A DNA stretch of 15,825 nt. Source: a virus (Duplodnaviria; Heunggongvirae; Uroviricota; Caudoviricetes). Shown one piece after another: positions 1-13,458 of this stretch (position 1 is its first letter; each line of letters opens with the position of its first letter). The notes below the pieces were generated by a model. That model was not told the origin of the DNA, ran no database searches, and was given only the letters and a program-made list of their open reading frames with translations. Both the position numbers and the translations under genes were made by a program. The stretch is taken from IMG/VR virus record IMGVR_UViG_2778261180_000007. One strand, given 5' to 3'.

Positions 1-483
1 ATGACGAAGAAAAAAGCACATAAACCTGGTTCAGCGACCATCGCGCTTAACAAGCGCGCCCGTCACGAATACTTTATCGAAGAAGAGTTCGAAGCGGGAC
101 TTGCCCTGCAAGGCTGGGAGGTTAAATCCCTGCGCGCAGGAAAAGCCAATATCAGCGACAGCTACGTCCTTCTGCGTGACGGAGAGGCATTTCTGTTTGG
201 CGCTAACATCACGCCAATGGCCGTGGCCTCCACGCATGTGGTGTGCGATCCTACCCGTACCCGCAAGTTACTTCTCAACCAGCGCGAACTGGACTCATTG
301 TACGGTCGCGTCAATCGAGAAGGCTATACCGTAGTGGCGCTCTCCCTGTACTGGAAAAATGCCTGGTGCAAAGTGAAAATCGGCGTCGCCAAAGGTAAAA
401 AACAGCACGATAAACGTTCAGATATCAAAGAACGCGAATGGCAGGTGGATAAAGCACGTATCATGAAAAACGCCCACCGTTAA
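1..483 (+). CDS. smpB: SsrA-binding protein SmpB
   Basis: 160-aa ORF starting at the ATG at base 1. The translation ([25 protein letters not shown]...) is recognisable as SmpB, and it sits directly upstream of the tmRNA gene as in enterobacteria. Confidence 0.95.
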
Positions 484-646
484 ACCTGCACTCCAATTAT
501 TGACCAGTTCCTCACCGCGCCTCCCTCTCCGGCGGCGCGAATGAACATCTTATTGGCTATCACATCCGACACAAATGTTGCCATCCCATTGCTTAATCGA
601 ATAAAAATCAGGCTACATGGGTGCTAAATCTTTAACGATAACGCCA

Positions 647-690
647 TTGAGGCTGGTCATGGTGCTCATAAATCTGGTATACTTACCTTT
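647..690 (+). promoter_or_regulatory. candidate ssrA promoter
   Basis: Extended -10-like TGgTATACT at 675-683 lies about 15 nt upstream of the mature tmRNA 5' end, consistent with a short 5' leader removed by processing. A TTGAGG hexamer at 647-652 is too far away to be a standard -35. Assigned by eye only. Confidence 0.35.
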
Positions 691-697
691 ACACATT

Positions 698-1060
698 GGG
701 GCTGATTCTGGATTCGACGGGATTTGCGAAACCCAAGGTGCATGCCGAGGGGCGGTTGGCCTCGTAAAAAGCCGCAAAAAATAGTCGCAAACGACGAAAA
801 CTACGCTTTAGCAGCTTAATAACCTGCTTAGAGCCCTCTCTCCCTAGCCTCCGCTCTTAGGACGGGGATCAAGAGAGGTCAAACCCAAAAGAGATCGCGT
901 GGAAGCCCTGCCTGGGGTTGAAGCGTTAAAACTTAATCAGGCTAGTTTGTTAGTGGCGTGTCCGTCCGCAGCTGGCAAGCGAATGTAAAGACTGACTAAG
1001 CATGTAGTACCGAGGATGTAGGAATTTCGGACGCGGGTTCAACTCCCGCCAGCTCCACCA
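698..1060 (+). ncRNA. ssrA: tmRNA (transfer-messenger RNA, SsrA), 363 nt
   Basis: Starts GGGGCTGATTCTGGATTCGACGGG and ends GGTTCAACTCCCGCCAGCTCCACCA (tRNA-like acceptor/T-arm with CCA). Internal tag reading frame GCA AAC GAC GAA AAC TAC GCT TTA GCA GCT TAA at 787-819 encodes (A)ANDENYALAA. Confidence 0.95.
1038..1060. other. attL core: last 23 nt of ssrA (TTCAACTCCCGCCAGCTCCACCA)
   Basis: A P4-type integrase gene follows ssrA directly, and an imperfect copy of this segment recurs at 12922-12943 at the far end of the P4-like gene set. Confidence 0.4.
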
Positions 1061-1093
1061 CTTGCTCTTCCGGATACGTCCGGAGAAATCCTG

Positions 1094-1128
1094 AAAGCCC
1101 GCATGGCACAAGCTCTGCGGGCTTTTTT
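1094..1128 (+). terminator. intrinsic terminator downstream of ssrA
   Basis: GC-rich hairpin AAAGCCCGCA...TGCGGGCTT followed by TTTTTT (1122-1128). Confidence 0.5.
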
Positions 1129-1172
1129 GTGTCTACCGTTGTCCGAGGATATCCAGCTAAATCCAGTGATTA

Positions 1173-1224
1173 TTGGTATACGTTTAGGTATACGGTAGGA
1201 TGTATACCTAAACGCGTATACCAA
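1173..1224. repeat. inverted pair of a 21-bp motif (TTGGTATACGnTTAGGTATAC) upstream of int; candidate integrase arm-type or operator sites
   Basis: TTGGTATACGTTTAGGTATAC at 1173-1193 and its near-perfect reverse complement GTATACCTAAACGCGTATACCAA at 1202-1224. A third copy, TTGGTATACGATTAGGTATAC, lies at 12848-12868 next to the attR-like site. Confidence 0.5.
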
Positions 1225-1244
1225 TTCATGAAGGAACGGCTAAA

Positions 1245-2444
1245 GTGGCAAGAACGACACGCCCCCTGACCAACACAGAAGTTCTGCGCGCTAAAGCGTT
1301 AGAAAAGGATCTAACGTTGCATGATGGCGATGGTCTTTTTCTGCTCGTTAAAACGAACGGTAAGAAGTTATGGCGTTTCCGTTATCAACGTCCAACAACA
1401 AAGCAGCGAACAATGATGGGGCTAGGTGCATTTCCCGCCCTCTCACTTGCTGACGCCCGGCGGTTAAGAGCGGATTACCTTTCCTTGCTAGCCAACGGAA
1501 TTGACCCGCAAATTCAAGCTGAGATTGTAGAGGAACAGCAACAAATTGCACTGGACAGTATTTTTTCAACAGTCGCCGCTAACTGGTTCCAGCTTAAAAG
1601 CAAAAGCGTTACCCCTGATTACGCGAAAGACATTTGGCGTTCACTAGAAAAAGATGTATTCCCTGCCATCGGTGAGATTCCAGTTCAGCAAATCAAAGCC
1701 CGAATGCTTGTTGAAGCCCTAGAGCCAATCAAAGCACGTGGGGCGCTAGAGACGGTACGTCGTCTGGTGCAGCGCATTAATGAGATAATGATTTATGCCG
1801 TAAACACAGGTCTGATTGATGCCAATCCAGCATCAGGTATTGGGATGGCCTTTGAGAAACCTAAAAAGCAAAACATGCTTACTCTCCGGCCAGAAGAATT
1901 ACCGAAGCTGATGCGTTCTTTAATTATGTCTAATCTATCCGTTCCGACACGTTGTCTTATTGAGTGGCAACTACTGACCCTTGTGCGCCCTTCTGAAGCC
2001 TCCGGTACAAGGTGGGCAGAGATCGATCTCGCAGCAAAGGTCTGGACGATTCCACCCGAACGGATGAAGGCCAAGCGTGAGCACATTGTTCCTCTATCTT
2101 CTCAGGCATTAGAAATTCTGGAAGTAATGAAACCAATCAGTGCTCATCGTGAACATGTTTTTCCCAGTAGAAATGACCCGAAACAGTCAATGAATAGCCA
2201 AACTGCTAATGCAGCACTCAAACGCATTGGTTATGGTGGGAAATTAGTTGCTCATGGGTTACGATCCATCGCAAGTACTGCACTCAATGAAGCCGGATTT
2301 AATCCTGATGTAATTGAAGCAGCTCTAGCACATAGTGATAAAAATGAAGTACGAAGAGCTTATAACCGCTCAACGTACCTTAATAAAAGAATAGAACTTA
2401 TGGCATGGTGGGGAAGGTTTGTTTATAAAACAAACCTTTTATAA
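1245..2444 (+). CDS. int: P4-family tyrosine integrase (site-specific recombinase)
   Basis: 399-aa ORF with a GTG start preceded by AAGGA. N-terminal arm-binding-like region (LHDGDGLFLLVKTNGKKLWRFRYQRP) and C-terminal catalytic signature (AHGLRS ... AHSDKNEVRRAYNRSTY) typical of P4-like integrases. Position directly 3' of a tmRNA gene. Confidence 0.9.
   Translation: MARTTRPLTNTEVLRAKALEKDLTLHDGDGLFLLVKTNGKKLWRFRYQRPTTKQRTMMGLGAFPALSLADARRLRADYLSLLANGIDPQIQAEIVEEQQQIALDSIFSTVAANWFQLKSKSVTPDYAKDIWRSLEKDVFPAIGEIPVQQIKARMLVEALEPIKARGALETVRRLVQRINEIMIYAVNTGLIDANPASGIGMAFEKPKKQNMLTLRPEELPKLMRSLIMSNLSVPTRCLIEWQLLTLVRPSEASGTRWAEIDLAAKVWTIPPERMKAKREHIVPLSSQALEILEVMKPISAHREHVFPSRNDPKQSMNSQTANAALKRIGYGGKLVAHGLRSIASTALNEAGFNPDVIEAALAHSDKNEVRRAYNRSTYLNKRIELMAWWGRFVYKTNLL
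2414..2444 (+). terminator. possible terminator hairpin inside the 3' end of int
   Basis: AAGGTTTG (2414-2421) pairs with CAAACCTT (2431-2438) and is followed by TTTTATAA. The int stop (2442-2444) directly abuts the stop of the convergent ATPase gene (2445-2447). Confidence 0.3.
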
Positions 2445-4142
2445 CTATACTTTAAAGAACTTATTTGTCGAAGATAACTCAAGGATCGAGTTACTCATCA
2501 TCATTTTCATGTCCGCATCTTCTGAAAACTTATCACTTAATATTGACACAATATATTGACCATTTATATTATTTGCTTCAAAAAATATATCTCTAATTTG
2601 ATTCACATCGACATCTTCAATGCTATCATGAATAACAAAAGTAGGTCTCTTTAATTTAATCTTATCCACAAACTTAATATAAGCCAAATCAAATGCAGTT
2701 ATTTCACCTTTCTTCTTGCCGCCATTACTGTTTGGTGTAACGCATGATATATCAAAATTACACTTACCTTTATCAACATCAAAGGAAAGATCAAAAATGT
2801 ATCTTTCCCCATATATTTCCTTTGTAAGATCACCAAAAAACTCATTGAAAATCTCGATGTTTTTTTCCAGACCTTGAACTGCTAACTCTATTTCTAAAAG
2901 TAATTTCTCTCGACTATCTTCAAGAGATTTTATAAGGGCATTTGTATCATTAATACGCGAAAGATTAGACTCTATGCTAGCAAGATTTTCACGTAATTCA
3001 GTAAGCTTATTAAATAATTGATTTATAGACTTTAATGTTTCAGGTTCTTTGATTGTTCTAAATAGGGATGATTCTTGTTCATGAAGATCATTGATTTTTT
3101 TATTTACAGTTTCTATTTCTTCTTTTTTCTTTAACAATTCAGATTCTAAAAAACTGATTTTATTCTTAATAATATCATTATGGAACAATACCATTTCTTC
3201 GTAAGTCCTTTTAAGTTCCCCATTAAAATAAATCCCCGCAGAATTATATATTTCCATTAAATCATTTTCTACAAGTTGTGTGATATTATTCTTCAAGGAC
3301 AAGATCGATTCTTCGATATTTCTTACTCGCATATTTAAGGAGGCATAGCTCAAAGAATAATCACTGATATTCTTCTGTATTTCTGAAAGCTTTTTTAAGC
3401 TTTCATCATGACTATCTTTAAAATCGAAGTTCTTAATATTTCTTTCCGCCTCTGCAATTTCTTTCTTCAGAGGCTTAATCATTTTTGCTAAAACAGTCTC
3501 TCTATTTGGATTCCTGTATGCGGCAAGATATGTCTTTTGTTTTTTTATCTCTTTGTTAAAATCACCTTTTTTCTTTATCAGAGGTAACCCATTGAACCCA
3601 AATAAAAACAAGTATAATAGATCATAGACATCAGGAGTCGTATTCCCATGTAAGAAATTAAGCGTTTTCTGCATTTTATCATTCGTGTTTCTAATAAATT
3701 TATGCGAAACATTCCTCAGTGATGGCTTATCTGTAGTTAACCCAAACACTGCTTGAGCTATAAATTCAGAATATTGTTTCTTATCTACTTCAACATCATT
3801 TAAAAAATATTTTGAATTTTTATCATCAATAGATATTATACGTGAAACAACTGCCTTTTTATTTTCTACCGTATTGAAATCCAATGAAAATTTCAAAACA
3901 TTATTATTAATTAACGATACAATTTCAGGTATATCTTTTCCAAACTCTGCATCATGATAAATATCATGACCTGATGACATAAATAAATAATCTAAAACAC
4001 GCGATAATGTGGATTTACCTACACTATTGCCGCTATCTTTGCCTGATGTTCTTTTATTTACAATTAGATTCAGACCGTCTTTAAACGTCACCTCTCTTAC
4101 AAGAGAGTCATTTTTTAAAATAATAAGTTTATTGAGCCTCAT
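2445..4142 (-). CDS. ABC-type (SMC/RecF-like) ATPase with long central coiled-coil; candidate defence-system ATPase
   Basis: 565-aa ORF. N-terminal strand-plus-P-loop layout (LNLIVNKRTSGKDSGNSVGKSTL, Walker A lysine K43). About 300 aa of heptad-like K/E/L/N-rich sequence. C-terminal signature-like SNGGKKKG followed by Walker-B-like TFVIHDSIEDVD. Start overlaps the upstream gene by 14 nt; GGTGGA lies upstream of the ATG. Confidence 0.75.
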   Translation of the reverse strand: MRLNKLIILKNDSLVREVTFKDGLNLIVNKRTSGKDSGNSVGKSTLSRVLDYLFMSSGHDIYHDAEFGKDIPEIVSLINNNVLKFSLDFNTVENKKAVVSRIISIDDKNSKYFLNDVEVDKKQYSEFIAQAVFGLTTDKPSLRNVSHKFIRNTNDKMQKTLNFLHGNTTPDVYDLLYLFLFGFNGLPLIKKKGDFNKEIKKQKTYLAAYRNPNRETVLAKMIKPLKKEIAEAERNIKNFDFKDSHDESLKKLSEIQKNISDYSLSYASLNMRVRNIEESILSLKNNITQLVENDLMEIYNSAGIYFNGELKRTYEEMVLFHNDIIKNKISFLESELLKKKEEIETVNKKINDLHEQESSLFRTIKEPETLKSINQLFNKLTELRENLASIESNLSRINDTNALIKSLEDSREKLLLEIELAVQGLEKNIEIFNEFFGDLTKEIYGERYIFDLSFDVDKGKCNFDISCVTPNSNGGKKKGEITAFDLAYIKFVDKIKLKRPTFVIHDSIEDVDVNQIRDIFFEANNINGQYIVSILSDKFSEDADMKMMMSNSILELSSTNKFFKV

Positions 4143-4362
4143 ATACTATTCCACCATTTCCATCTAACTCAATTGCGCCGATTATGAAAAGCCAATCTAA
4201 TGAGTAAAGAAAAAGATCAAACGATAACTCGAAGATAGAATTTACTAAATCATACAATCGAGATATTTCAATGACCATTGAATCATTACTTTGAAAGATC
4301 CCAAGCACTACACTTCCAATATATACAGGATTTGCTTTTGGATCCGTATCAATTGTAATCAT
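4129..4362 (-). CDS. hypothetical small protein (77 aa) with hydrophobic C-terminal half; operon member
   Basis: ORF preceded by GGAG with 8-nt spacing. Overlaps both neighbours by 14 nt, indicating coupled translation. Hydrophobic segment FDLFLYSLDWLFIIGAIEL. No family recognised. Confidence 0.5.
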   Translation of the reverse strand: MITIDTDPKANPVYIGSVVLGIFQSNDSMVIEISRLYDLVNSIFELSFDLFLYSLDWLFIIGAIELDGNGGIVYEAQ

Positions 4363-4897
4363 TTGGATTCTCCAGCACTATACATTCGATAATAGCATAG
4401 CTAACAATCATACGAATGCCATAATCAATATCTTCCTGTAAAAACTCTGAATCTAAATTAGAACACGAACTAACTGTTTCTTGAGCAGCTCTAATAACAT
4501 CATCTATAATATTATCCGAGTTTTTCCTTATGAGTTCAATGTTAAATGGTTTCTCATAAAGACCATATAATCCCAATGCAGTATTATAATAACCTCTAAA
4601 CTGTCTTTTCAATTTGACACTACCATTTAAAATTATAGCATCAAGTGTTTTTATGGATTCATCAACTAGCAGAGCATCTTCTTTATAAAGTTCAGCTACC
4701 CATCTGTTTCTTTTAAGATCATTGAATTCTATTTTAACATCAATATTTGATGCTATTCTGTTTAAGTTTTGCTCGCTACCAACTGAATTAGAAATAATTT
4801 CAATTAACTTACCAATAACACTGGCTCTTAACATTCTTGGCTGGTTGTTTATATGCACAGGACCAGTATTATTATTGAAATTAACACCAGAACCCAT
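4349..4897 (-). CDS. hypothetical protein (182 aa); operon member
   Basis: ORF preceded by GGGGG. Starts 3 nt after the stop of the upstream small gene. N-terminus carries an NNNTGPVHINN motif that repeats the C-terminus of the upstream protein. No catalytic motif recognised. Confidence 0.65.
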   Translation of the reverse strand: MGSGVNFNNNTGPVHINNQPRMLRASVIGKLIEIISNSVGSEQNLNRIASNIDVKIEFNDLKRNRWVAELYKEDALLVDESIKTLDAIILNGSVKLKRQFRGYYNTALGLYGLYEKPFNIELIRKNSDNIIDDVIRAAQETVSSCSNLDSEFLQEDIDYGIRMIVSYAIIECIVLENPNDYN

Positions 4898-4899
4898 AA

Positions 4900-5172
4900 T
4901 TACCCCCGATTATCAATATTCACAGGACCATTATTATCTTGAAAATATTGAGAACGCGCTCCTTGATTAATGAAGTTTCTATTAGTTGTAATTTTTACAA
5001 TCTGGGAATTAAGATCATTTATTGTAATGTTAAGTTGTTTTATCTCATTATCTTTCTTGGTTACTTGCATAGTCTGATATATTGCTATACATCCAGAGAT
5101 CACCCCAACAATATATCCAAAGGCACTTACATATTCGTTAGCAAGTAGTGATGCAATCATTTGGAGCTCCAT
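4900..5172 (-). CDS. small membrane-anchored protein (90 aa; 86 aa from the alternative ATG at 5160); first gene of the operon
   Basis: Predicted N-terminal transmembrane helix (IASLLANEYVSAFGYIVGVISGCIAIY) followed by a charged helical stretch. The second in-frame ATG at 5160 has a better-placed GGAG. C-terminus NNGPVNIDNRG. Confidence 0.55.
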   Translation of the reverse strand: MELQMIASLLANEYVSAFGYIVGVISGCIAIYQTMQVTKKDNEIKQLNITINDLNSQIVKITTNRNFINQGARSQYFQDNNGPVNIDNRG

Positions 5173-5429
5173 TTCAAGCTGAAAGATTTAAAGTCACAAC
5201 AATCTCATCCTATTAGGGTAGCTAGGATAGCAACTCATGAAGAGTAAATAAATAGGTATTAATCATTATCGTTTACATGATCTAATTCAACATAGATCCA
5301 CTCATGGCCTCTATACTTTCTCATAAACACAGTGTTTAGCTATGTGGGCTTAAGAGGTCTAAATTGATGTACTTACTTTATCAATTGATATAACCCCAAA
5401 TTATAATCGTTTCATATCATTGACGCGCA

Positions 5430-5448
5430 GTGCTTTCCCCGCCTCGCC
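5430..5448 (-). other. cos site: 19-nt cohesive-end sequence GGCGAGGCGGGGAAAGCAC (minus-strand reading)
   Basis: Plus-strand GTGCTTTCCCCGCCTCGCC is the exact reverse complement of the cohesive-end sequence I recall for P2 and P4. It lies between psu and the cargo operon, where cos sits in an integrated P4. Confidence 0.75.
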
Positions 5449-5548
5449 CGCCCGCTTTGCGGGGCGGTTTTAATGCAGTTGCACTGACACGCTCAGACCG
5501 CGCCGGGAATGGCGCGGTCTGCAGAAAATGAGGCAGGGAAACGCATGC

Positions 5549-5582
5549 AAAGCCATGCACCTTATCGATGCATGGCTTTTTT
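5549..5582 (+). terminator. hairpin plus T-tract between cos and the psu 3' end
   Basis: AAAGCCATGCA (5549-5559), loop CCTTATCGA, TGCATGGCTTT (5569-5579), then a T run. May stop read-through into or out of the late operon; orientation of function uncertain. Confidence 0.35.
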
Positions 5583-5612
5583 CAGTAAAAACGGGCGGAT
5601 TTTCGGGGAATT

Positions 5613-6185
5613 TTACACAGACTGACGTGATGCCAGTTGCGCACTTTTACGCGAAAAAATCATGTTCTGCGCAGGGGTGAATTTTTCACGGCTGTCATCC
5701 ACCGAAGCCGCGTCAGGTCTGAATCCAATGGCCGTTAAAATGTCGCTATCCTGTGCGGAATAATTAATTTTTTCACCCTTCGCAAGCCAGGACAGGAGGG
5801 CTTCACGCAGGGCATCTGTGGCACGCTGTATGGCACAGTTTCGGGCAATGGCCGTCAGCTCACTGTAGCCCATCAGCTCCGGTGCCAGTGCCGCCGCCAG
5901 TGCTGTGCCGTGCTGCTGCATAAAATCATTCAGCCGGTCGCGGATGCTGATGTGCTGAACGGCTTCATGCGAACGAATATAACGACCGGCGGCCTGATTC
6001 ACCTGCCATTTTCTGACTTCGATAATATTGCGTAATTCGTCCAGGCGACTGACGTTTCTGCCTTCTCCTGACAGAAGCCGCAGATATTCCTGTTCGGCCG
6101 CAGCCAGCTCATTTTTGCGTTGCAGCCATGCTGCTTTGTTATTCTGACAGGTGTCAAAGGCCTGCTGTAAGGCTGTGCTTTCCAT
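5613..6185 (-). CDS. psu: Psu (polarity suppression / capsid decoration protein), P4-like
   Basis: 190-aa ORF, the size of P4 Psu, last gene of the sid-delta-psu array next to cos. Sequence MESTALQQAFDTCQNN... recognised as Psu-like. Confidence 0.85.
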   Translation of the reverse strand: MESTALQQAFDTCQNNKAAWLQRKNELAAAEQEYLRLLSGEGRNVSRLDELRNIIEVRKWQVNQAAGRYIRSHEAVQHISIRDRLNDFMQQHGTALAAALAPELMGYSELTAIARNCAIQRATDALREALLSWLAKGEKINYSAQDSDILTAIGFRPDAASVDDSREKFTPAQNMIFSRKSAQLASRQSV

Positions 6186-6258
6186 CGTTATCTCTTTCTC
6201 ATCATGCTGAAGAATAAAAATACGGTGTGCGGCGACGGCCGGTGTTAACCGGCAGCCC

Positions 6259-6759
6259 TCATTCCAGACGCAGCGAATATGATTGTGTTTTTAACCGTAC
6301 TGGCGGCAGTTCCTGTTTTTCATGCAGGCTTTCTGCAAGCTCGTCCGGCGTGACCGGGCGGACAATGAAGCGGTTGATGGTCTGAAGCGTTTTAAACACC
6401 AGACCACAGCCCGGATCCGTGCACACATAAAAACGCTCGGTGACTTCCTGAGACAGACGCCGCGATGTTCTTGACAGTGCAAGGCCTTTACATCTCCGAC
6501 AACAATATCCGGTAACAAGCATTCTTTTCGGGCGTTTCATACTGCCGGAGGCTGACGTCAGTGAATCGCGGTATCTCTGTTTGCCTGAAATGTATTCCAT
6601 TCCTGAATCTTTACTGTCAGAGAAAAAGCTTTCACTCGCTTCAAATGTCGCAGAGCAATAAATATTCCGGCACTGTGCAATCATTATCTTGGTGCCATCG
6701 TCCATGAAATGTGCGCGACGGGTGTGAGCAACATGTCCACACGACGGGCAGTAAATCAT
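6259..6759 (-). CDS. delta: Delta, Ogr/Delta-family zinc-finger late-gene activator (tandem Ogr-like repeats)
   Basis: 166-aa ORF with two Ogr-like units, each carrying CPxCGH...C-x-N-x-x-C(S)ATF-type Cys motifs (MIYCPSCGHVAHTRR...QCRNIYCSATF and ...CRRCKG...CTDPGCGLVF). ATGA overlap with the sid stop. Confidence 0.85.
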   Translation of the reverse strand: MIYCPSCGHVAHTRRAHFMDDGTKIMIAQCRNIYCSATFEASESFFSDSKDSGMEYISGKQRYRDSLTSASGSMKRPKRMLVTGYCCRRCKGLALSRTSRRLSQEVTERFYVCTDPGCGLVFKTLQTINRFIVRPVTPDELAESLHEKQELPPVRLKTQSYSLRLE

Positions 6760-7490
6760 GACAGCAGTCCTCTGGCCTTAAGCTCTGCTCCCTGCTGGTC
6801 TATTTTGTCCTGCCACACCTTGCGCTGTGCCGGTGTGCCTGCCACCTCATAATCCATGTGCGGGAGTGTTGCCGCTGACAGTCCGGTCAGCCGGAGAACC
6901 GGCTCACCGGTGAGGCTGATTTGCATCTGTTTTATTTTCTGTTCCAGCGATGATTTCACCTGCTGCATGACAGCCTTTTCCGGTGCGACGTAGCCCTGAT
7001 GGCCGGTGGTGTTGGCGAGCGGATTTTCCTGTACCAGGATGCTCAGATGCATTGCCCGGACAAGCACCTCACAGGTTTCATTCAGGGCGTGTTCCAGCTC
7101 ATGCTCTGCATACAGACTCAGAAGGTGATGATGTGCCTTCCGGTAGGCGGTGGCCGTGCTGTCACACGCCCCTTTCAGGCGTTCACGTTCAAAATTCAGC
7201 ACCACGGCCAGATTGTCATATTCCTGTACCAGCTCCCGGCGTGCCACGCGCTCAATGTGGCGCTGTTTCAGCTCGTCGCTCAGGACACCACCGGCTGCAC
7301 GAAAGGCCGTGCGCCAGTCGTCAGCGTCGTTTCCGTCGGCCTGCGCCAGCGCATTTTTTTCCTGCTCTGCCCGTTCAATGGCCGTGACGGTCTCATCCAT
7401 CAGGCGGGCGTTCTCAAGATGGGCGGCTCTGGCCTTTTCCAGTTGTGCCAGCGCGGGTTGCAGATATTCAGGGATGGTGTTGTCAGACAT
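6756..7490 (-). CDS. sid: Sid (capsid size determination, external scaffold), P4-like
   Basis: 244 aa from the ATG at 7490, which is preceded by AGGAG (MSDNTIPEYLQPALAQ...). The ORF track's earlier ATG at 7556 lacks a Shine-Dalgarno and would overlap the promoter region. Confidence 0.8.
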   Translation of the reverse strand: MSDNTIPEYLQPALAQLEKARAAHLENARLMDETVTAIERAEQEKNALAQADGNDADDWRTAFRAAGGVLSDELKQRHIERVARRELVQEYDNLAVVLNFERERLKGACDSTATAYRKAHHHLLSLYAEHELEHALNETCEVLVRAMHLSILVQENPLANTTGHQGYVAPEKAVMQQVKSSLEQKIKQMQISLTGEPVLRLTGLSAATLPHMDYEVAGTPAQRKVWQDKIDQQGAELKARGLLS

Positions 7491-7562
7491 TTTCCGGCTC
7501 CTCGTCACTTCAGGTTGAGAAAATTGTGACGTACACCGGACAACAACACGACGCATTGCAGA

Positions 7563-7580
7563 TGTGCCAGCCCTGACACA
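7563..7580 (-). promoter_or_regulatory. candidate Delta/Ogr activator site (TGT-N12-ACA) of the sid late promoter
   Basis: TGTGCCAGCCCTGACACA. Its centre is about 82 bp upstream of the sid ATG, compatible with a dyad centred near -55 and a ~27-nt leader. Confidence 0.35.
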
Positions 7581-7659
7581 GGAGACTCATCCTCAGACCG
7601 GCAAGCCAGGAAAAGGTCGCAGGAAAAACCGGCTTACTGTTTGTTTTTTTATATTTTAC

Positions 7660-7763
7660 TGTTCACCTCTGTTCACCATAAGAAAAAAGATAAGTAATAC
7701 AGTAAGTTAAAGGGTGAACAATCGCAGTAATGACTGTTCACCGTCTGTTCACCACTGTTCACC
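7660..7763. repeat. iteron cluster: six copies of the P4 type-I octamer TGTTCACC; candidate alpha-binding origin
   Basis: TGTTCACC at 7660-7667, 7670-7677, 7735-7742, 7746-7753 and 7756-7763; inverted copy GGTGAACA at 7713-7720. Flanked by a T-rich tract (7641-7657). Lies between the divergent sid and vis promoters. Confidence 0.7.
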
Positions 7764-7922
7764 CGTTGATGGGCTTTTTGTGCTGTTTATTACTGTTTGT
7801 TTTTATTAATTCGCCGGGAATGAATAAGAAAAAACGATTTGTATTTCACTATAAAAATTACGAATTGCTTTAAGTGGCTTTAAATGACTTTAAGTGGAGA
7901 TGAACAAAAAACACACAAGCAT

Positions 7923-7940
7923 TGTAAGGCTGCCGGAACA
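7923..7940 (+). promoter_or_regulatory. candidate Delta-dependent late-left promoter activator site (TGT-N12-ACA) upstream of vis
   Basis: TGTAAGGCTGCCGGAACA. Centre is about 111 bp upstream of the vis ATG, and about 395 bp upstream of the putative early promoter. Confidence 0.3.
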
Positions 7941-8042
7941 AATCCCCCCTGTTGCGTCTGCTGAAAATATTCACAAAATAAAACGCTACCCGAAGCCGGA
8001 CGGACTTATCCGGTGCTGTATGGACATTAACGAGGTAGCCCG

Positions 8043-8309
8043 ATGCAAGCTGTTTTTTCTTCCCCGTCTCCTGCCCCTGTGACGCCACTGATGCCGCTGC
8101 CGGACATCACACAGGAGCGTTTTTTACGTCTGCCGGAAGTGATGCACCTGTGCGGCCTGTCACGCTCGACCATCTATGAACTCATCCGTAAGGGGGAATT
8201 TCCGCCGCAGGTGAGTCTTGGCGGTAAAAATGTGGCCTGGCTGCACTCTGAAGTCACCGCATGGATGGCCGGCCGCATTGCCGGACGCAAACGGGGGTAT
8301 GACGCATGA
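8043..8309 (+). CDS. vis: Vis/AlpA-family DNA-binding regulator (excision and late-transcription control)
   Basis: 88-aa ORF, the size of P4 orf88/Vis. AlpA-type helix-turn-helix core [48 protein letters not shown] lies 7 nt upstream of the ATG. Confidence 0.8.
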
Positions 8310-8896
8310 TGATGCCCGCTCTGCAAAAACTCCCTTTTTCTGGCTTGCCTTTTTCCGGCATTTGCGGATATAGTTTTTCCGTTGCCGCAAAATCGGCAGC
8401 CGGGCGTGAGAACCCGTGTAACTCGAAGGCGACATATGACGCGCCATGCGTCTTTTTTTGTGTCGCAATCAACGCCACAGAGCGCCAGATTATGGTGTGG
8501 CGTGTGGTTTGCCGTGCAGGTATGATCCTGTTCGCAATCGCATGTTATGCCACTGAGTCAATGGTAGCTCAGGCGGGGCAGCCTCCGGGCTGGCCGGTAT
8601 TCTTCGAGGCCGGTATTCTCACCCCCGTCTGGGCTATCGCCATCGAGCGTGAGAACTCCGGCGATAGCAGTTATTTGCTACTCGAAGGAGGCTGCCTTAT
8701 GGCTACAACCCTTACCCCCTCACACCCTGAATTTGTCTTTGTGTTTGCGGCTGTCCGTCGCGCAGACCGTCATCCCCGTATCTGTATGCTTCGCACCGTC
8801 GCCGGTGATGAACGCAGTGCCCGCCGTTCCCTTGTCCGTGACTATGTGCTCTCCCTTGCTGCCCGTCTGCCGGTGGTGGAGGTGTCCCGTGCGTAA
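8306..8896 (+). CDS. eta: eta-like long ORF (194-196 aa, three consecutive ATGs) enclosing kil and spanning the immunity region
   Basis: Open frame from an ATGATGATG start that overlaps the vis stop (ATGA). Matches my recollection of P4 eta: about 197 codons, three candidate start codons, kil nested in the same frame at the 3' end. Coding status itself is uncertain. Confidence 0.4.
8345..8374 (+). promoter_or_regulatory. candidate early promoter (PLE-like)
   Basis: TTGCCT (8345-8350), 18-bp spacer, TATAGT (8369-8374); alternative -10 GATATA with 16-bp spacer. Lies just upstream of seqA. Confidence 0.3.
8406..8687 (+). promoter_or_regulatory. P4-type RNA immunity region: seqA (8406-8428), seqB within a candidate CI RNA (8602-8622), seqC (8649-8687)
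   Basis: seqA GTGAGAA...CTCGAAG and seqC GTGAGAA...CTCGAAG are each complementary to seqB CTTCGAG...TTCTCAC (reverse complement GTGAGAAtaccggcCTCGAAG). seqC runs into the GGAGG Shine-Dalgarno of kil. Confidence 0.45.
8699..8896 (+). CDS. kil: Kil-like small protein (65 aa)
   Basis: ATG at 8699 preceded by GGAGG that overlaps seqC. 65 codons, the size I recall for P4 Kil. Shares frame and stop with eta. Confidence 0.5.
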
Positions 8897-9176
8897 TAAA
8901 AAAGCCCCTCAGACCGTCTCAGCACGTCATGACGCCCGTGAACACCTCAGCATTGAGGCTTACCATAAGCTCAACCGCGCCAGCGCCGTATCCCAGTTTG
9001 TTGGGGGTGATTTGATTCACCGTGAACTCTCCGGCCTGCATCAGCTCTACATTCCGCATATTTTCAGCTACCTGAATGAAGATATTGATTTTGTGCTGAA
9101 TGAGCTGAAAGCCAAAGGCCTGTGCCGCGATTTTCTCGCCCAGCAGAAAGACCGGGGAGACAGGACGCATGTTTGA
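8889..9176 (+). CDS. Eps-like protein (95 aa), candidate helper-derepression factor
   Basis: GTG start at 8889 preceded by GGAGG and overlapping the kil stop. Stop overlaps the start of the orf151-like gene. Assignment is by position and size relative to P4 epsilon. The ORF track's longer form (from 8649) lies in the immunity region. Confidence 0.5.
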
Positions 9177-9624
9177 TTTTCCCCAGCCCGGTGAGATTTA
9201 CCGTTCTGCCGGTTTTCCCGATGTGGCCGTAGTCGGCATTCTGGAAGACGGTATTCCGTGGGAAATGCCGTACCGCTGCCCGGACATTGTCTGGAACCCG
9301 TACCGCCGTAAATTCAGTATTCTTGTGCGTATCCTCGCCGACGGGCGCACCACAGACATCCCGCTGGGGCGTTTTCTGCGGGAATTTACCTGTGACCGTC
9401 CTGACCTGTTTAAACGCAGCCCCGTAAACCGGCATGCGGTACTGAAAGAAATGGCCGGAGACCCGGAATTACAGAAATGGCGGGAGAAATATCTGGATAT
9501 TTACCCGCAGGAGCCTGTTCCGGTCAGCCGGGCGGCACCGGTGGCGCGGGAATGGCGGGAAATTCCCCGCACGGAGCCTGACCCGGAAATCACCCCGGAT
9601 AACAGTTACCGCAATTATCTGTAA
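9169..9624 (+). CDS. P4 orf151-like hypothetical protein (151 aa)
   Basis: Size and position (between eps and alpha) match P4 orf151. Start overlaps the upstream stop. Confidence 0.7.
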   Translation: MFDFPQPGEIYRSAGFPDVAVVGILEDGIPWEMPYRCPDIVWNPYRRKFSILVRILADGRTTDIPLGRFLREFTCDRPDLFKRSPVNRHAVLKEMAGDPELQKWREKYLDIYPQEPVPVSRAAPVAREWREIPRTEPDPEITPDNSYRNYL

Positions 9625-9759
9625 TTAAAAAACGACACCCGAAAAATTAAATGTGCGTATTCGCGCAGGGATACGCACGTCTTCAGGAGACGCAGATATG
9701 CCTTATCAGTTAATGCAACCGGCACGGAATGCAGTCATCTGTCACAGGGAGGAAAGCAA

Positions 9760-10080
9760 ATGAAAACACCCTTACCGCCCGTCTTACGCGCTGCCCTTTA
9801 CCGTCGCGCTGTCGCCTGTGCCTGGCTGACCGTGTGCGAACGTCAGCACCGCTACCCGCATCTCACCCTTGAGTCACTGGAGGCGGCCATCGCCGCTGAG
9901 CTGGAAGGCTTTTATCTGCGCCAGCACGGTGAGGAAAAAGGGCGTCAGATAGCCTGTGCCCTGCTGGAAGATTTAATGGAATCCGGCCCCCTGAAGGCCG
10001 CGCCGTCGCTGTCCTTTCTCGGGCTGGTTGTGATGGATGAACTCTGTGCCCGTCACATAAAAGCGCCGGTACTGCACTGA
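9760..10080 (+). CDS. P4 orf106-like hypothetical protein (106 aa)
   Basis: GGGAGG lies 7 nt upstream of the ATG. Sits directly upstream of alpha. A 21-codon upstream ORF overlaps its start. Confidence 0.65.
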
Positions 10081-10094
10081 AGGAGAACAACACC

Positions 10095-12428
10095 ATGAAA
10101 ATGAACGTAACCGCCACCGTCAGCCATGCACTCGGCCACTGGCCGCGTATTCTCCCGGCGCTGGGGATTCAGGTGCTGAAAAACCGTCATCAGCCCTGTC
10201 CGGTCTGTGGCGGGAGTGACCGCTTCCGTTTTGATGACAGGGAGGGGCGCGGCACCTGGTACTGCAATCAGTGTGGTGCCGGTGACGGCCTGAAACTGGT
10301 TGAAAAGGTGTTTGGTGTTTCCCCGTCCGACGCGGCCGCAAAGGTGGCTGCCGTGACCGGCAGCCTGCCCCCGGCTGACCCGGCAGTGACGGCCGCCGCC
10401 GGTGCTGAAACAGACGCTGCCCGGAAGAACGCCGCCGCACTGGCACAAACCCTGATGGCAAAAACCCGTCCCGGAACCGGTAACGCCTACCTGACCCGCA
10501 AGGGCTTTCCCGGCCGGGAATGCCGGATGCTGACCGGCACACACAGAGCCGGTGGCGTGAGCTGGCGCGCCGGTGACCTTGTGGTGCCACTGTATGACGA
10601 CAGCGGCGAACTGGTTAACCTTCAGTTAATCAGTGCTGACGGCCGTAAGCGCACCCTGAAAGGCGGACAGGTCAGGGGCACCTGTCACATCCTTGAAGGA
10701 CAGAATCAGGCCGGAAAACGTCTGTGGATAGCGGAGGGATACGCGACCGCACTTACCGTGCATCACCTGACCGGTGAAACGGTGATGGTGGCGCTTTCTT
10801 CCGTGAATCTCCTTTCTCTGGCCAGCCTTGCCCGGCAGAAGCATCCGGCCTGTCAGATTGTCCTTGCTGCTGACCGTGACCTCAGCGGTGACGGCCAGAA
10901 AAAAGCCGCCGCAGCCGCAGATGCGTGTGAAGGTGTTGTTGCCCTGCCGCCGGTCTTCGGTGACTGGAATGATGCCTTCACGCAGTACGGCGGGGAAGCC
11001 ACCCGTAAGGCCATTTATGATGCCATCCGGCCACCGGCTGAAAGCCCGTTCGACACCATGAGCGAAGCGGAGTTTTCCGCCATGAGTACCAGCGAAAAGG
11101 CCATGCGTATCTATGAGCATTACGGCGAGGCGCTCGCGGTTGATGCCAACGGCCAGCTTCTGTCCCGTTATGAAAATGGTGTCTGGAAGGTGCTGCCACC
11201 ACAGGACTTTGCCCGGGATGTGGCCGGGCTGTTTCAGCGGCTGCGCGCGCCGTTCTCCTCCGGGAAGGTGGCCTCCGTGGTGGACACCCTGAAGCTGATT
11301 ATTCCGCAGCAGGAAGCCCCCTCCCGCCGCCTGATTGGCTTTCGTAACGGCGTGCTCGACACGCAGAACGGCACGTTCCACCCGCACAGTCCGTCACACT
11401 GGATGCGCACCCTGTGCGATGTGGATTTCACCCCACCGGTGGAAGGGGAAACGCTGGAAACCCACGCCCCCGCGTTCTGGCGCTGGCTTGACCGTGCCGC
11501 CGGTGGCCGTGCGGAAAAACGCGACGTGATTCTGGCCGCACTGTTTATGGTGCTGGCAAACCGCTATGACTGGCAGCTCTTTCTGGAGGTGACCGGTCCC
11601 GGCGGAAGCGGCAAAAGTATCATGGCCGAAATAGCCACCCTGCTGGCCGGGGAGGATAACGCCACGTCGGCCACCATTGAGACGCTGGAATCCCCGCGTG
11701 AACGTGCCGCGTTAACTGGCTTCTCACTGATACGCCTGCCGGACCAGGAAAAATGGAGCGGCGACGGAGCCGGACTCAAGGCCATCACCGGCGGCGATGC
11801 AGTGTCCGTTGACCCGAAATACCGGGATGCGTACTCCACGCACATCCCGGCGGTGATTCTGGCCGTGAACAATAACCCGATGCGCTTCACCGACCGCAGC
11901 GGCGGCGTGTCACGCCGGCGGGTGATTATTCACTTCCCGGAACAGATAGCCCCGCAGGAGCGCGACCCGCAACTTAAGGACAAAATCACCCGCGAGCTGG
12001 CGGTCATCGTGCGTCACCTGATGCAGAAGTTCAGCGACCCGATGCTCGCCCGGTCACTGCTTCAGTCCCAGCAGAACTCAGACGAGGCACTGAACATCAA
12101 ACGGGATGCCGACCCGACGTTTGATTTTATCGGCTATCTGGAAACCCTGCCGCAGACCAGCGGCATGTATATGGGGAACGCCAGTATCATCCCGCGTAAC
12201 TACCGTAAATACCTCTATCACGCCTATCTGGCCTACATGGAGGCAAACGGCTACCGGAATGTACTCAGTCTGAAAATGTTCGGGCTGGGGCTGCCGGTGA
12301 TGCTGAAGGAATACGGGCTGAATTACGAGAAGCGCCATACCAAACAGGGGATACAGACCAACCTGACGCTGAAAGAGGAAAGCTACGGCGACTGGCTGCC
12401 AAAATGTGACGACCCTGCAACAACCTGA
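10095..12428 (+). CDS. alpha: Alpha: P4-type primase-helicase replication protein
   Basis: 777 aa, the size of P4 alpha. AGGAG Shine-Dalgarno. N-terminal zinc motif CPVCGGSDRFRFDD...CNQCG. Toprim-like EGYATAL and AADRD. Helicase Walker A VTGPGGSGKS. Iteron arrays lie on both sides. Confidence 0.9.
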   Translation: MKMNVTATVSHALGHWPRILPALGIQVLKNRHQPCPVCGGSDRFRFDDREGRGTWYCNQCGAGDGLKLVEKVFGVSPSDAAAKVAAVTGSLPPADPAVTAAAGAETDAARKNAAALAQTLMAKTRPGTGNAYLTRKGFPGRECRMLTGTHRAGGVSWRAGDLVVPLYDDSGELVNLQLISADGRKRTLKGGQVRGTCHILEGQNQAGKRLWIAEGYATALTVHHLTGETVMVALSSVNLLSLASLARQKHPACQIVLAADRDLSGDGQKKAAAAADACEGVVALPPVFGDWNDAFTQYGGEATRKAIYDAIRPPAESPFDTMSEAEFSAMSTSEKAMRIYEHYGEALAVDANGQLLSRYENGVWKVLPPQDFARDVAGLFQRLRAPFSSGKVASVVDTLKLIIPQQEAPSRRLIGFRNGVLDTQNGTFHPHSPSHWMRTLCDVDFTPPVEGETLETHAPAFWRWLDRAAGGRAEKRDVILAALFMVLANRYDWQLFLEVTGPGGSGKSIMAEIATLLAGEDNATSATIETLESPRERAALTGFSLIRLPDQEKWSGDGAGLKAITGGDAVSVDPKYRDAYSTHIPAVILAVNNNPMRFTDRSGGVSRRRVIIHFPEQIAPQERDPQLKDKITRELAVIVRHLMQKFSDPMLARSLLQSQQNSDEALNIKRDADPTFDFIGYLETLPQTSGMYMGNASIIPRNYRKYLYHAYLAYMEANGYRNVLSLKMFGLGLPVMLKEYGLNYEKRHTKQGIQTNLTLKEESYGDWLPKCDDPATT

Positions 12429-12440
12429 CCCTCATGACTC

Positions 12441-12800
12441 ATCTGACCGGCATCTGCCGGTCTTTTTTCATCCCTGAATCCCCCGAAGGTGAACAATCCA
12501 CTGTTCACCCTTCACCGTATATTCACCCGTTATCACACTGAAATTAAAAGAGAAAAATGAAAGGTGAACAGTGTGAACAATCAAATCAAAAAAAACTTTT
12601 TTCTCCCTGTGTGATTTCAGTACGGGGGATTAATCACCGGTATGAGTCACACCGGCAGAATGCCGGAGGTGAAGAATCGAATGTTCACCCTTCACCCATT
12701 ATTCACCACCTATCAAACTGAAATAAAAGGAGAAAAAAGAAAGATGAACAGTGTGAACAGTTCTTCCGAAAAAAAATTTTTTTCCTGTACGATATAGCAT
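12441..12800. repeat. two tandem ~180-bp imperfect direct repeats with TGTTCACC/GGTGAACA iterons and A8/T6-7 tracts; cis-replication-region-like
   Basis: Unit 1: GGTGAACA 12488-12495, TGTTCACC 12502-12509, degenerate copies 12510-12528, GGTGAACA 12563-12570, GTGAACA 12573-12579, A8cT6 12588-12602. Unit 2 repeats this 180 bp later (TGTTCACC 12682-12689, A8T7 12769-12783). Each unit begins with a CCGGCA...TGCCGG hairpin. Confidence 0.65.
12445..12468 (+). terminator. intrinsic terminator of the alpha (left) operon
   Basis: GACCGGCA, loop TC, TGCCGGTC, then TTTTTT, 17 nt after the alpha stop. Confidence 0.55.
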
Positions 12801-12847
12801 CAATCCAAGTAAAAATGCGCTTTCATTTCACATTAACTTACAGCCAT

Positions 12848-12868
12848 TGGTATACGATTAGGTATACA
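12848..12868. repeat. third copy of the 21-bp TTGGTATACGnTTAGGTATAC motif (candidate arm-type site)
   Basis: TTGGTATACGATTAGGTATAC, 54 bp before the attR-like sequence. Confidence 0.4.
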
Positions 12869-12921
12869 CACAAAAACTGAATTAAACAAAATCATTAAAA
12901 ATCAAAGCAATACAATATTTA

Positions 12922-12943
12922 TTCAAACTCCGCCAGCCCACCA
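12922..12943. other. attR-like degenerate copy of the ssrA 3' end (TTCAAACTCCGCCAGCCCACCA)
   Basis: Aligns to the attL core TTCAACTCCCGCCAGCTCCACCA with three single-base indels. Lies immediately beyond the last P4-like feature and before the chromosomal autotransporter gene. Confidence 0.35.
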
Positions 12944-13070
12944 ATCATGATTGGACGGTATAAGGACAACACCAATAAAAACAGGAAGTTAGCAGTCTCA
13001 GCAGGACACCGACCAGACGGTGAAGAGACATAAAAGGATACGCAAAGGAGCCGCGGCTCCTGGTGACATG

Positions 13071-13094
13071 AAAGCCCACAGATGTGGGCTTTTT
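13071..13094. terminator. hairpin with T-tract just 3' of the autotransporter gene (orientation ambiguous)
   Basis: AAAGCCCACA, loop GAT, GTGGGCTTT, then TTT; A-rich on the other side, so possibly bidirectional. Confidence 0.35.
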
Positions 13095-13103
13095 CGTTGA
13101 TGG

Positions 13104-13430
13104 TCAGAACGACCAGTTCACACCAGCTACCCCGTTCCACGGGGATTCCACACCGGCACCATGGCTATACCCCACCCCAAGATGCCCGCTTAACGTACTG
13201 CTGAATGAGGCTTTAATACCTGCCTGGTATATTCCACGTCTGCCCGACAAATCATTGACAAAATTACCGTCACTATTCACTTTCACCCGATTATCATCGA
13301 CAAATTCTTTGCGCACAGCCGCCTTCAGGCAGGGTTCAATTTCCATACCGTTCCCCAGACGCATGTTGTAACTCAGCGTTGCACCCAGTTCACGATATAA
13401 ACTGCGGGTATCGACTGATTTCGATTCCAT
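13104..13430 (-). CDS. autotransporter C-terminal beta-barrel segment (108 aa), in a different frame from the upstream passenger ORF
   Basis: Ends ...GVAGVNWSF with a terminal aromatic residue, typical of outer-membrane beta-barrel C-termini. Separated from the passenger ORF by a stop and a frame change at 13431-13461. Confidence 0.5.
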   Translation of the reverse strand: MESKSVDTRSLYRELGATLSYNMRLGNGMEIEPCLKAAVRKEFVDDNRVKVNSDGNFVNDLSGRRGIYQAGIKASFSSTLSGHLGVGYSHGAGVESPWNGVAGVNWSF

Positions 13431-13458
13431 GCCATTGGATAAATGATATTCAGGGTTA

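Follow-up and report, generated by a model that had tools for sequence, protein, structure and literature searches.

The question raised by this locus was whether the 19-nt sequence on the minus strand at positions 5430–5448 of IMG/VR virus record IMGVR_UViG_2778261180_000007 is a cohesive-end site (cos) through which a P2-like helper phage could package the surrounding DNA. The whole stretch of 15,825 nt is called the window here. The 19-mer is taken, with a probability of about 85%, to be the cos cut site of an intact 11,883-bp P4-type satellite prophage inserted at the 3' end of ssrA in Escherichia coli. Very probably, a P2-type helper could package and spread this element together with its putative defence-gene cargo. 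The features at and beside the site are:

5430–5448, minus strand: 19-nt cohesive-end sequence GGCGAGGCGGGGAAAGCAC, predicted site of the staggered terminase cut; the same as P4 bases 1–19 and P2 cosL/cosR.
About 5424–5483, minus strand: conserved cos core seen in alignments, consisting of TGCAACTGCATTAAAACCGCCCCGCAAAGCGGGCG (about 30–35 nt, on the psu or right-end side), the 19-mer, and TGCGCG (on the cargo or left-end side).
5449–5612, minus strand: psu-cos intergenic region, with two hairpins found by sequence inspection (GCCATGCA..TGCATGGC and ACCGCGCC..GGCGCGGT).

The plus strand at 5430–5448 reads GTGCTTTCCCCGCCTCGCC, and the minus strand, from 5448 to 5430, GGCGAGGCGGGGAAAGCAC. With both strands searched and up to 3 mismatches tolerated, GGCGAGGCGGGGAAAGCAC had a single match in the window. 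No match to it occurred in any of 200 dinucleotide-preserving shuffles of the window, and its naive chance expectation in the window was about 1e-7 (2 x 15825 / 4^19; own arithmetic). The sequence-only reading had given the 19-mer as the cohesive end of P2 and P4, correctly: the sequence was identical to bases 1–19 of the P4 record (NC_001609), to the annotated cosL (1–19) and cosR (33575–33593) of P2 (NC_001895), and to the cohesive end given for P2-related phages in PMC3931495. In the alignment to the P2 and P4 cos regions, which the same reading had proposed as a check, the 19-mer was identical and the flanking core was common to all three. A scan for the exact 19-mer in one genome per species (596 Gb in total) gave 38 loci, 33 with the conserved flanking block and 5 free of such context. 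The 5 context-free loci were all in unrelated G+C-rich genomes, and approximately 4.3 chance matches are expected at 596 Gb (own arithmetic). The bare 19-mer is weak evidence across a huge database, and decisive in a 15.8-kb window with these flanks.

Packaging is reported to require a core of about 55 bp (Ziermann and Calendar, 1990, as cited in PMC3931495 and PMC2231350), so the signal is more than the 19-mer. In P4, cutting of the circles at the 55-bp cos yields 19-nt ends, and the P4 cos alone is enough for a plasmid to be packaged (PMC2231350). A core of this length and of the P2/P4 type was present around the 19-mer of the window, with one atypical base (+7). When the alignment was anchored on the 19-mer, the window, P4 and P2 all showed TGCATTAAAACCGCCCCG..AAGCGGGCG, the 19-mer, and (T/C)GCGCG. 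When the window was compared with P2, P4 and the 33 genomic loci that have a real cos context, the 30 psu-side nt were 87% identical, the 19-mer 100% and the following 7 nt 85%, and identity fell to 35% further out. The base at +1 (5429) was T in the window, in P2 and in nearly all natural loci, and C in the P4 reference, which is functional.

The 33 loci with the flanking block belonged to Escherichia, Salmonella, Klebsiella, Raoultella, Kosakonia, Phytobacter, Yokenella, Dickeya and Atlantibacter, and some of them were contigs of metagenome-assembled genomes labelled with non-enterobacterial taxa. Most had either psu at -739 to -170 (satellites) or the portal gene gpQ on the other side, usually within about 200–400 nt (P2-like). 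In IMG/VR, at least 120 loci carried the 19-mer; among the matches listed, 93 were P2-like, 20 P4-like and 7 unclassified. It was followed by TGCGCGC in 113 of these 120 listed loci, and by TGCGCGT, as in the window, in 2, both of them satellites. P2-like prophages with this exact 19-mer were common in that listing, and a cos-like block was seen in 2,243 of 5,426 complete E. coli genomes. By all sequence criteria examined, the site is a member of the P2/P4 cos family.

The geometry of the junction was that of joined P4 ends. The P4 right end (base 11624) corresponded to window 5449, directly abutting the 19-mer that opens the P4 record; since the next 19 bases are P4 1–19, the window holds the closed, circular-form junction of the P4 ends. 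The end of psu lay 165 nt from the 19-mer, and the start of the cargo 258 nt from the left cohesive end. The psu-cos region (5449–5612) had 2 mismatches to P4 11461–11624 (162/164 nt identical). On the plus strand, 5448–5467 form a G+C-rich hairpin followed by TTTT, with a terminator-like score, overlapping the edge of the cos core. This hairpin, built from the conserved CCGCCC..GCGGGCGG cos flank, may be a by-product of the terminase-recognition sequence.

From cos onward the window followed P4. Positions 5449–12782 had 97.7% DNA identity to P4 4291–11624 (opposite strand), and the order cos-psu-delta-sid...vis-CI RNA-epsilon-orf151-orf106-alpha-crr was the same as in P4. Homology to P4 stopped at 12782, the end of crr. 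Mapping of the P4 proteins onto the window by tblastn, together with domain and RNA family searches, gave the following features:

5613–6185, minus strand: psu (capsid decoration protein and Rho inhibitor); 98.9% amino acid (aa) identity to P4 Psu over 190/190 residues; Pfam Psu, E = 8e-89.
6259–6759, minus strand: delta (Ogr/Delta-type protein that activates the late genes of the helper); 166/166 residues aligned to P4 Delta, with 98.2% aa identity; Pfam Ogr_Delta.
6756–7490, minus strand: sid (external scaffold turning the helper capsid into a small T=4 shell); 244/244 residues aligned to P4 Sid, with 99.2% aa identity; PHROG 6165, E = 2e-115.
7563–7580, minus strand: TGT-N12-ACA dyad TGTGTCAGGGCTGGCACA upstream of sid, a candidate Ogr/Delta-type activator site by sequence.
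8043–8309, plus strand: vis/alpA-family regulator and excision factor (P4 orf88); 98.9% aa identity; Pfam Phage_AlpA, E = 7e-21.
8368–8644, plus strand: immunity RNAs by Rfam, with c4-a1b1 targets (8368–8420), an isrK-type RNA (8381–8458) and the C4/CI antisense RNA (8557–8644).
8889–9176, plus strand: epsilon (lifts the repression of a resident P2 prophage); 98.9% aa identity to its P4 counterpart; Pfam Derepression, E = 8e-51.
10095–12428, plus strand: alpha primase-helicase; 99.1% aa identity over 776/777 residues; Pfam Zn_Ribbon_Prim, Toprim_3, D5_N and Pox_D5.
12483–12782, plus strand: crr (cis replication region) with two 120-nt direct repeats (repeat family D1), corresponding to P4 crr 4291–4590.

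The presence of sid, delta and psu, which had been part of the original argument for helper-dependent packaging, was borne out (99.2, 98.2 and 98.9% aa identity to P4, respectively). The open reading frame (ORF) list gave sid 266 aa, to 7556, through an in-frame upstream ATG; the P4 alignment and the RefSeq annotation favour 244 aa from 7490. The 160 nt upstream of sid had one mismatch to P4, at 7517, and the dyad in this region, being of the type found at P2/P4 late promoters, is taken to be a putative Ogr/Delta activator site. Identity to P4 was 98.0% aa for orf151, 100% for orf106 and 83% for the 'cI' ORF, and tblastn gave no match in the window to P4 Gop, beta or cII. All three Rfam matches in the immunity region were above gathering scores. 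No part of the backbone was further from P4 than this region (8380–8608), which had clustered substitutions and a 9-nt indel; the divergence of the RNA, the target repeats and the overlapping 'cI' ORF suggests a different immunity specificity. No insertion sequence (IS) elements or frameshifts were found in the window element, and every P4 gene was full length. The published P4-like core set (int, psu, delta, sid, alpA, epsilon/ash region and alpha) was present in full and in canonical order, as judged from tblastn against P4 proteins, Pfam and PHROG matches, and the gene order in an annotated sister copy. Under the published definition by core genes (PMC8628076), the element is a complete P4-like satellite.

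The window is E. coli chromosome with an insertion between smpB-ssrA and ypjA. Its boundaries were set by comparison of attB, attL and attR:

1–483: smpB, by annotation.
698–1060, plus strand: ssrA (tmRNA), the integration target; ARAGORN, Rfam tmRNA (295.8 bits) and the annotation of the best-matching genome.
1055–1060, plus strand: attL overlap CCACCA at the 3' end of ssrA, by alignment to the empty attB; element DNA from 1061.
1061–12943: the whole insertion, 11,883 bp.
1172–1193 and 12846–12867: arm-type repeats ATTGGTATACG(T/A)TTAGGTATAC, from a repeat search.
12938–12943, plus strand: attR overlap CCACCA, after an imperfect copy of the ssrA 3' end (TTCAAACTCCGCCAGC), by alignment to the empty attB; element DNA to 12943.

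The empty site was searched for by joining the end of ssrA to the sequence beyond the element and querying this junction against E. coli genomes. At least 80% of the junction was covered in a single place in 1,389 genomes, and the top matches were all end-to-end, in one aligned piece, at 99.3%. Because the empty junction was intact in these genomes, the occupied site is a discrete insertion. The empty attB reads ...GCCAGCTCCACCA followed by ATCATG, attL ...GCCAGCTCCACCA followed by CTTGCT, and attR ...CTCCGCCAGCCCACCA followed by ATCATG. Exchange within the 3'-terminal CCACCA of ssrA is the sole model that would fit attB, attL and attR without mutation, and with this model the attP of the element would bear an imperfect copy of the ssrA end. 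The P-arm and overlap sequence of the window attR was also found in an independent, divergent lineage (L168). CGCCAGC was rejected as the crossover: it predicts an attR with TCCACCA, seen in no copy, and CCACCA fits the window and L168 exactly. In tandem arrays, matches to the window began at 1034. The length of the element was 102% of that of P4 (11,624 bp), and the small capsid holds roughly 12 kb (PMC9122126).

The whole window was matched at 98.6% in the closest complete RefSeq genome. Assembly GCA_032337635.2 matched window 1–13589 at 99.7% identity, and within the element it differed only at 12937–12940. Beyond attR, the minus strand carries a 108-aa autotransporter beta-barrel fragment (13104–13430) and a 700-aa ORF (13459–15561), which correspond to the ypjA/ehaD adhesin gene, a pseudogene by the annotation of the closest genome. 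Around 15001–15500, identity to this genome falls to 92%.

On the psu-distal side of cos the window departed from P4. The features of this arm are:

1245–2444, plus strand: tyrosine integrase targeting ssrA, other than P4 Int; NCBIfam NF007246/PRK09692, 585 bits vs a cutoff of 434.
2445–5172, minus strand: cargo operon of four co-directional genes in the cos-int hotspot; Pfam, PADLOC, PHROG 5467 and RefSeq names.
5172–4900, minus strand: 90-aa coiled-coil protein, with coiled-coil-like noise only in profile searches.
4897–4349, minus strand: 182-aa protein, with a sub-threshold CTD10 match (18 bits vs a cutoff of 28).
4362–4129, minus strand: MC6 middle component, 77 aa; Pfam MC6, 49.5 bits vs a cutoff of 27.2, and RefSeq name.
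4142–2445, minus strand: ABC/SMC-like ATPase with DUF2326, 565 aa; Pfam DUF2326, 64 bits vs a cutoff of 28.7.

The integrase gene lay directly after ssrA, and its product had the Pfam domains Arm-DNA-bind_3, Phage_int_M and Phage_integrase and 35% aa identity to P4 Int. The 565-aa ATPase matched PADLOC PDC-M68B at 1e-45 (PDC-M68 being a candidate class in PADLOC) and LmuB at 4e-16, and had weak matches to SMC_N, AAA_21 and Rad50. An SMC/ABC-type ATPase with a coiled-coil insert and a small middle-component gene adjoining it were both seen, and the operon is assigned on these profiles to the ABC-three-component (ABC-3C) architecture, a class that includes Lamassu, as a candidate defence system. 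The 182-aa and 90-aa proteins gave nothing significant in PADLOC, Pfam, NCBIfam, PHROGs or PDB sequence searches, and no PDB relative of the cargo was detected by sequence. Of 5,426 complete E. coli genomes, 28 carried the operon, with at least 99.6% identity. The exact ATPase occurred in 639 blocks of the assembly collection, and in 10/10 places shown it was at ssrA with the same integrase and with variable right flanks. In the supplement of PMC9122126, the cargo of the closest annotated copy (WP_021522835, WP_000628292, WP_000534626 and WP_000562050) is listed as 'hypothetical' content of the P4 hotspot. No literature report of an experimental test of the function of the operon was found.

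The sequence-only reading had held that the cargo adjoins cos and would be mobilised between hosts, and its position was as claimed: the cargo lay between cos and int, inside the predicted packaged unit. As the full circle would be packaged after a cut at cos (PMC2231350), the cargo would travel with the element.

The proposed route of packaging follows the established biology of P4 (PMC7552001, PMC2231350 and PMC9122126), with the roles of Sid, Psu, Delta, Epsilon and gpM/gpP as given in PMC7552001; the sequences required were present, and the activities are predicted from them. The trigger would be infection by a P2-type helper, acting through its Ogr, or derepression of a resident P2 prophage by the satellite epsilon (as expected from its 98.9% identity). 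Helper Ogr and satellite Delta would switch on sid-delta-psu, presumably through the dyad, which was conserved, and Delta would activate the helper late genes. The integrase and the AlpA/Vis-family protein would excise the element through the 6-bp CCACCA overlap of the att sites observed, and alpha would replicate it from ori/crr as monomer circles. Helper terminase (gpM/gpP), given the identity to P2 and P4, would bind the cos core of about 55 bp and make nicks staggered by 19 nt, so that the circle would be opened between window 5449 and 5448, leaving 5' GGCGAGGCGGGGAAAGCAC overhangs. Sid would make the capsid protein of the helper assemble as a T=4 shell, Psu would decorate this shell, and the whole 11.9-kb molecule would be packaged in Sid-sized T=4 capsids of helper proteins. 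A single cut per circle, with the full circle packaged, would keep together all that lies between the att sites. Cleavage, excision and transduction are expected from the near-identity to P4, and mobilisation by a helper with small capsids is likewise predicted from the 98–99% identity of Sid, Psu, Delta and Epsilon.

In a search for the excised or packaged form among the four IMG/VR matches and the 10 assembly places shown for the cargo ATPase, no contig of about 11.9 kb with an end at cos was found. The sole metagenome contig among the four IMG/VR matches (L167, 10.2 kb) broke inside int and beyond alpha, away from cos, and the 10 assembly places shown were on contigs of at least 93 kb, with smpB beside the integrase. 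The contig search gave no support either way.

Comparison of the window with 14 related copies revealed a step in divergence at cos. In 13/14 copies the att-int-cargo arm (1061–5429) had 0–7 mismatches (≤0.16%), divergence of the backbone from 5449 onward (to 12943) was 1.2–2.6%, and the step was about 15–40-fold. No mismatches occurred between 5297 and 5459 in any comparator, and the first backbone mismatches were at 5460–5718. The comparator backbones were not all alike, with only about half of the mismatch positions in common. Three IMG/VR loci (L167:7011, L168:8703 and L169:8703) had an int-cargo arm of 90–95% aa identity, with another 19-mer, GGCGTGGCGGGGAGAGCAT, in the place of the cohesive end. 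This sequence differs from the window 19-mer at 3 positions, and the helper-exploitation module of the three loci was much more divergent (Psu 62%, Sid 64%, Alpha 85%). As the same arm stands beside a different 19-mer, the cargo module is not tied to one cos type. From the step in divergence at cos, the att-int-cargo arm appears to have been exchanged as a unit.

Sister copies differed in the state of attR and of the backbone. The window attR (GCCAGC-CCACCA-ATCATG) was consistent with a clean attB x attP exchange. The overlap was short by 4 nt (GCCAGCCAATCATG) in 14EC029, cq9, L166 and GCA_032337635.2, and by 3 nt in one further copy (loci with attR deletions: L002, L166, L170, L171 and L174; site at window 12937–12940). 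These deletions might lock those copies in place. Stages of decay were seen in L005, L006, L173, L176, L178 and L180, with IS3-family insertions in sid or delta and alpha truncated or lost; among the decayed copies, the distal part was replaced by a prophage remnant carrying nleG. In L170 (E. coli cq9, NZ_CP031546.1 3780000–3822000) and L166, an Stx2e lambdoid prophage with its own integrase lay between ssrA and the satellite, and the internal att of this tandem was a perfect copy of the ssrA 3' end.

Several observations count against a functional cos in a mobilisable satellite. The base at +7 (5423) was T in the window vs C in 113/120 IMG/VR loci among the matches listed, the immunity region differed from that of P4, and the integrase module is heterologous to that of P4, its cooperation with a P4-type Vis/AlpA protein being assumed. 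The presence of a helper in the host cannot be read from the window, and the decay of sister copies elsewhere means that loss of mobility occurs in this lineage. A chance G+C-rich 19-mer with no packaging role would account for the site at a negligible probability: the five context-free exact matches in unrelated G+C-rich genomes were about the number expected in 596 Gb, but none of the 200 shuffles of the window matched, and the site is flanked by the conserved core of cos and lies at the junction of the P4 ends. Chance was ruled out by the shuffles and the conserved flanks. An origin of the site in a P2-like helper prophage, whole or fragmentary, and not in a satellite was highly improbable. 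The 19-mer and core are identical in P2-like phages, which contributed 93 of the 120 IMG/VR loci among the matches listed; however, psu ended close to the 19-mer (165 nt), and the psu-side flank was P4-specific (all but 2 of 164 nt matching). A P2 prophage was ruled out by the genes present in the window, with gpQ, terminase and other P2 structural genes absent. It is unlikely, though less so, that cos is a relic, kept only because the element is young or because cos overlaps the psu terminator region, in a satellite domesticated as a fixed chromosomal defence island, with excision and packaging lost. Such a history would agree with the IS3 element in sid and the loss of alpha in L005/L180, the IS in delta in L178, the truncated alpha in L173, the 3–4-nt deletion in the attR overlap of many copies, and the occurrence of the exact ABC protein at ssrA in 10/10 places shown and in both inspected of the 28 complete-genome matches. 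In the window, however, the P4 genes were full length, with 98–100% aa identity and free of IS elements and frameshifts; the att overlap was intact and the same as in the independent L168 lineage; the cos core was canonical; and the size fits the small capsid. The int-cargo arm was also found on several distinct backbones, which argues for ongoing exchange over a frozen island.

A functional cos of an intact P4-type satellite was thus the preferred reading, and a further role of the site, besides packaging, is tentatively proposed: cos may be a physical recombination junction for swapping the att-int-cargo arm between satellite backbones. The contrast between arm (≤0.16%) and backbone (1.2–2.6%) in 13/14 copies agrees with this, as do the arm beside GGCGTGGCGGGGAGAGCAT and a far more divergent psu/sid/delta module in L167–L169, and recombination promoted by ends at cos has been proposed by Rousset et al. 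(PMC9122126). The bracket (5297–5459), however, is wider than cos, and the core is conserved for function anyway, blurring the breakpoint; psu, sid and delta may have evolved faster, which could account for part of the L168 contrast; and ordinary homologous recombination with a breakpoint near cos would also be possible. The DNA contrast near cos in L168 was only about 83% (cargo side) vs 67% (psu side), which alone is no proof of recombination. Somewhat more doubtful still is that the cos core is also the physical boundary of a module, with the arm from attP to the left end swapped whole, including onto backbones with other cohesive ends. Speculatively, a heterodimer, or tandem satellites with a common att, could be packaged from cos to cos, which would set breakpoints exactly at att and cos and yield hybrid genomes directly; recombination promoted by terminase-cut ends is a possible alternative mechanism of exchange. 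No P4-P4 tandem at ssrA was found in the loci examined, and the cq9/L166 tandem, considered as one, was rejected, being the Stx2e lambdoid prophage plus this satellite.

With the P4-type satellite reading, this stretch of E. coli DNA is a complete, apparently mobilisable P4-type satellite, and its ABC-3C cargo is a transducible defence candidate and not a fixed island. This is useful for annotation and for the choice of systems to assay, and brings no new principle. What it adds is the intact attR overlap of the window copy vs the 3–4-nt deletion in several database relatives, and the abrupt change in divergence at cos, through which the proposed cos-linked exchange of defence cargo can be put to a concrete test.

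Among known systems, satellite P4 (NC_001609 / X51522) was the closest, with an identical 19-nt end, a right-end flank alike in 162/164 nt, 98–100% protein identity and the same gene order. Unlike in P4, the leuX-targeting int and gop-beta-cII are replaced here by the ssrA-targeting integrase and the ABC-3C operon; homology on the cargo side ends 6–7 nt past the 19-mer; the +1 base is T (as in P2) instead of C; the immunity region is diverged; and the length is 11,883 bp vs 11,624 bp. The cos of P2 (NC_001895) shares the 19-mer and the core of about 55 nt with TGCATTAAAACCGCCCCG..AAGCGGGCG and TGCGCG, but the left end of P2 adjoins the portal gene Q and its right end old/tin, where cargo and psu are found here, with no P2 genes. 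CP4-57, the cryptic P4-like prophage of E. coli K-12 after which the Pfam AlpA family is named, likewise has an ssrA target upstream of ypjA and an AlpA-family regulator. It is about 22 kb long and is not known to carry the P4 helper-exploitation set, whereas the element here is a complete P4-sized satellite. P4-like satellites with an antiviral hotspot adjacent to cos (PMC9122126, PMC8628076 and PMC13586616) have, as here, cargo between psu/cos and int, and seven core components; the published P4 hotspot table lists this cargo as 'hypothetical', and its assignment here as related to ABC-3C/Lamassu came from profile matches. The cos shared by P2 and P4, the shrinking of capsids by Sid and the defence hotspot adjacent to cos have all been published, and the finding is correct but ordinary: the element is within the described diversity of P4-like satellites and of the cos-adjacent hotspot.

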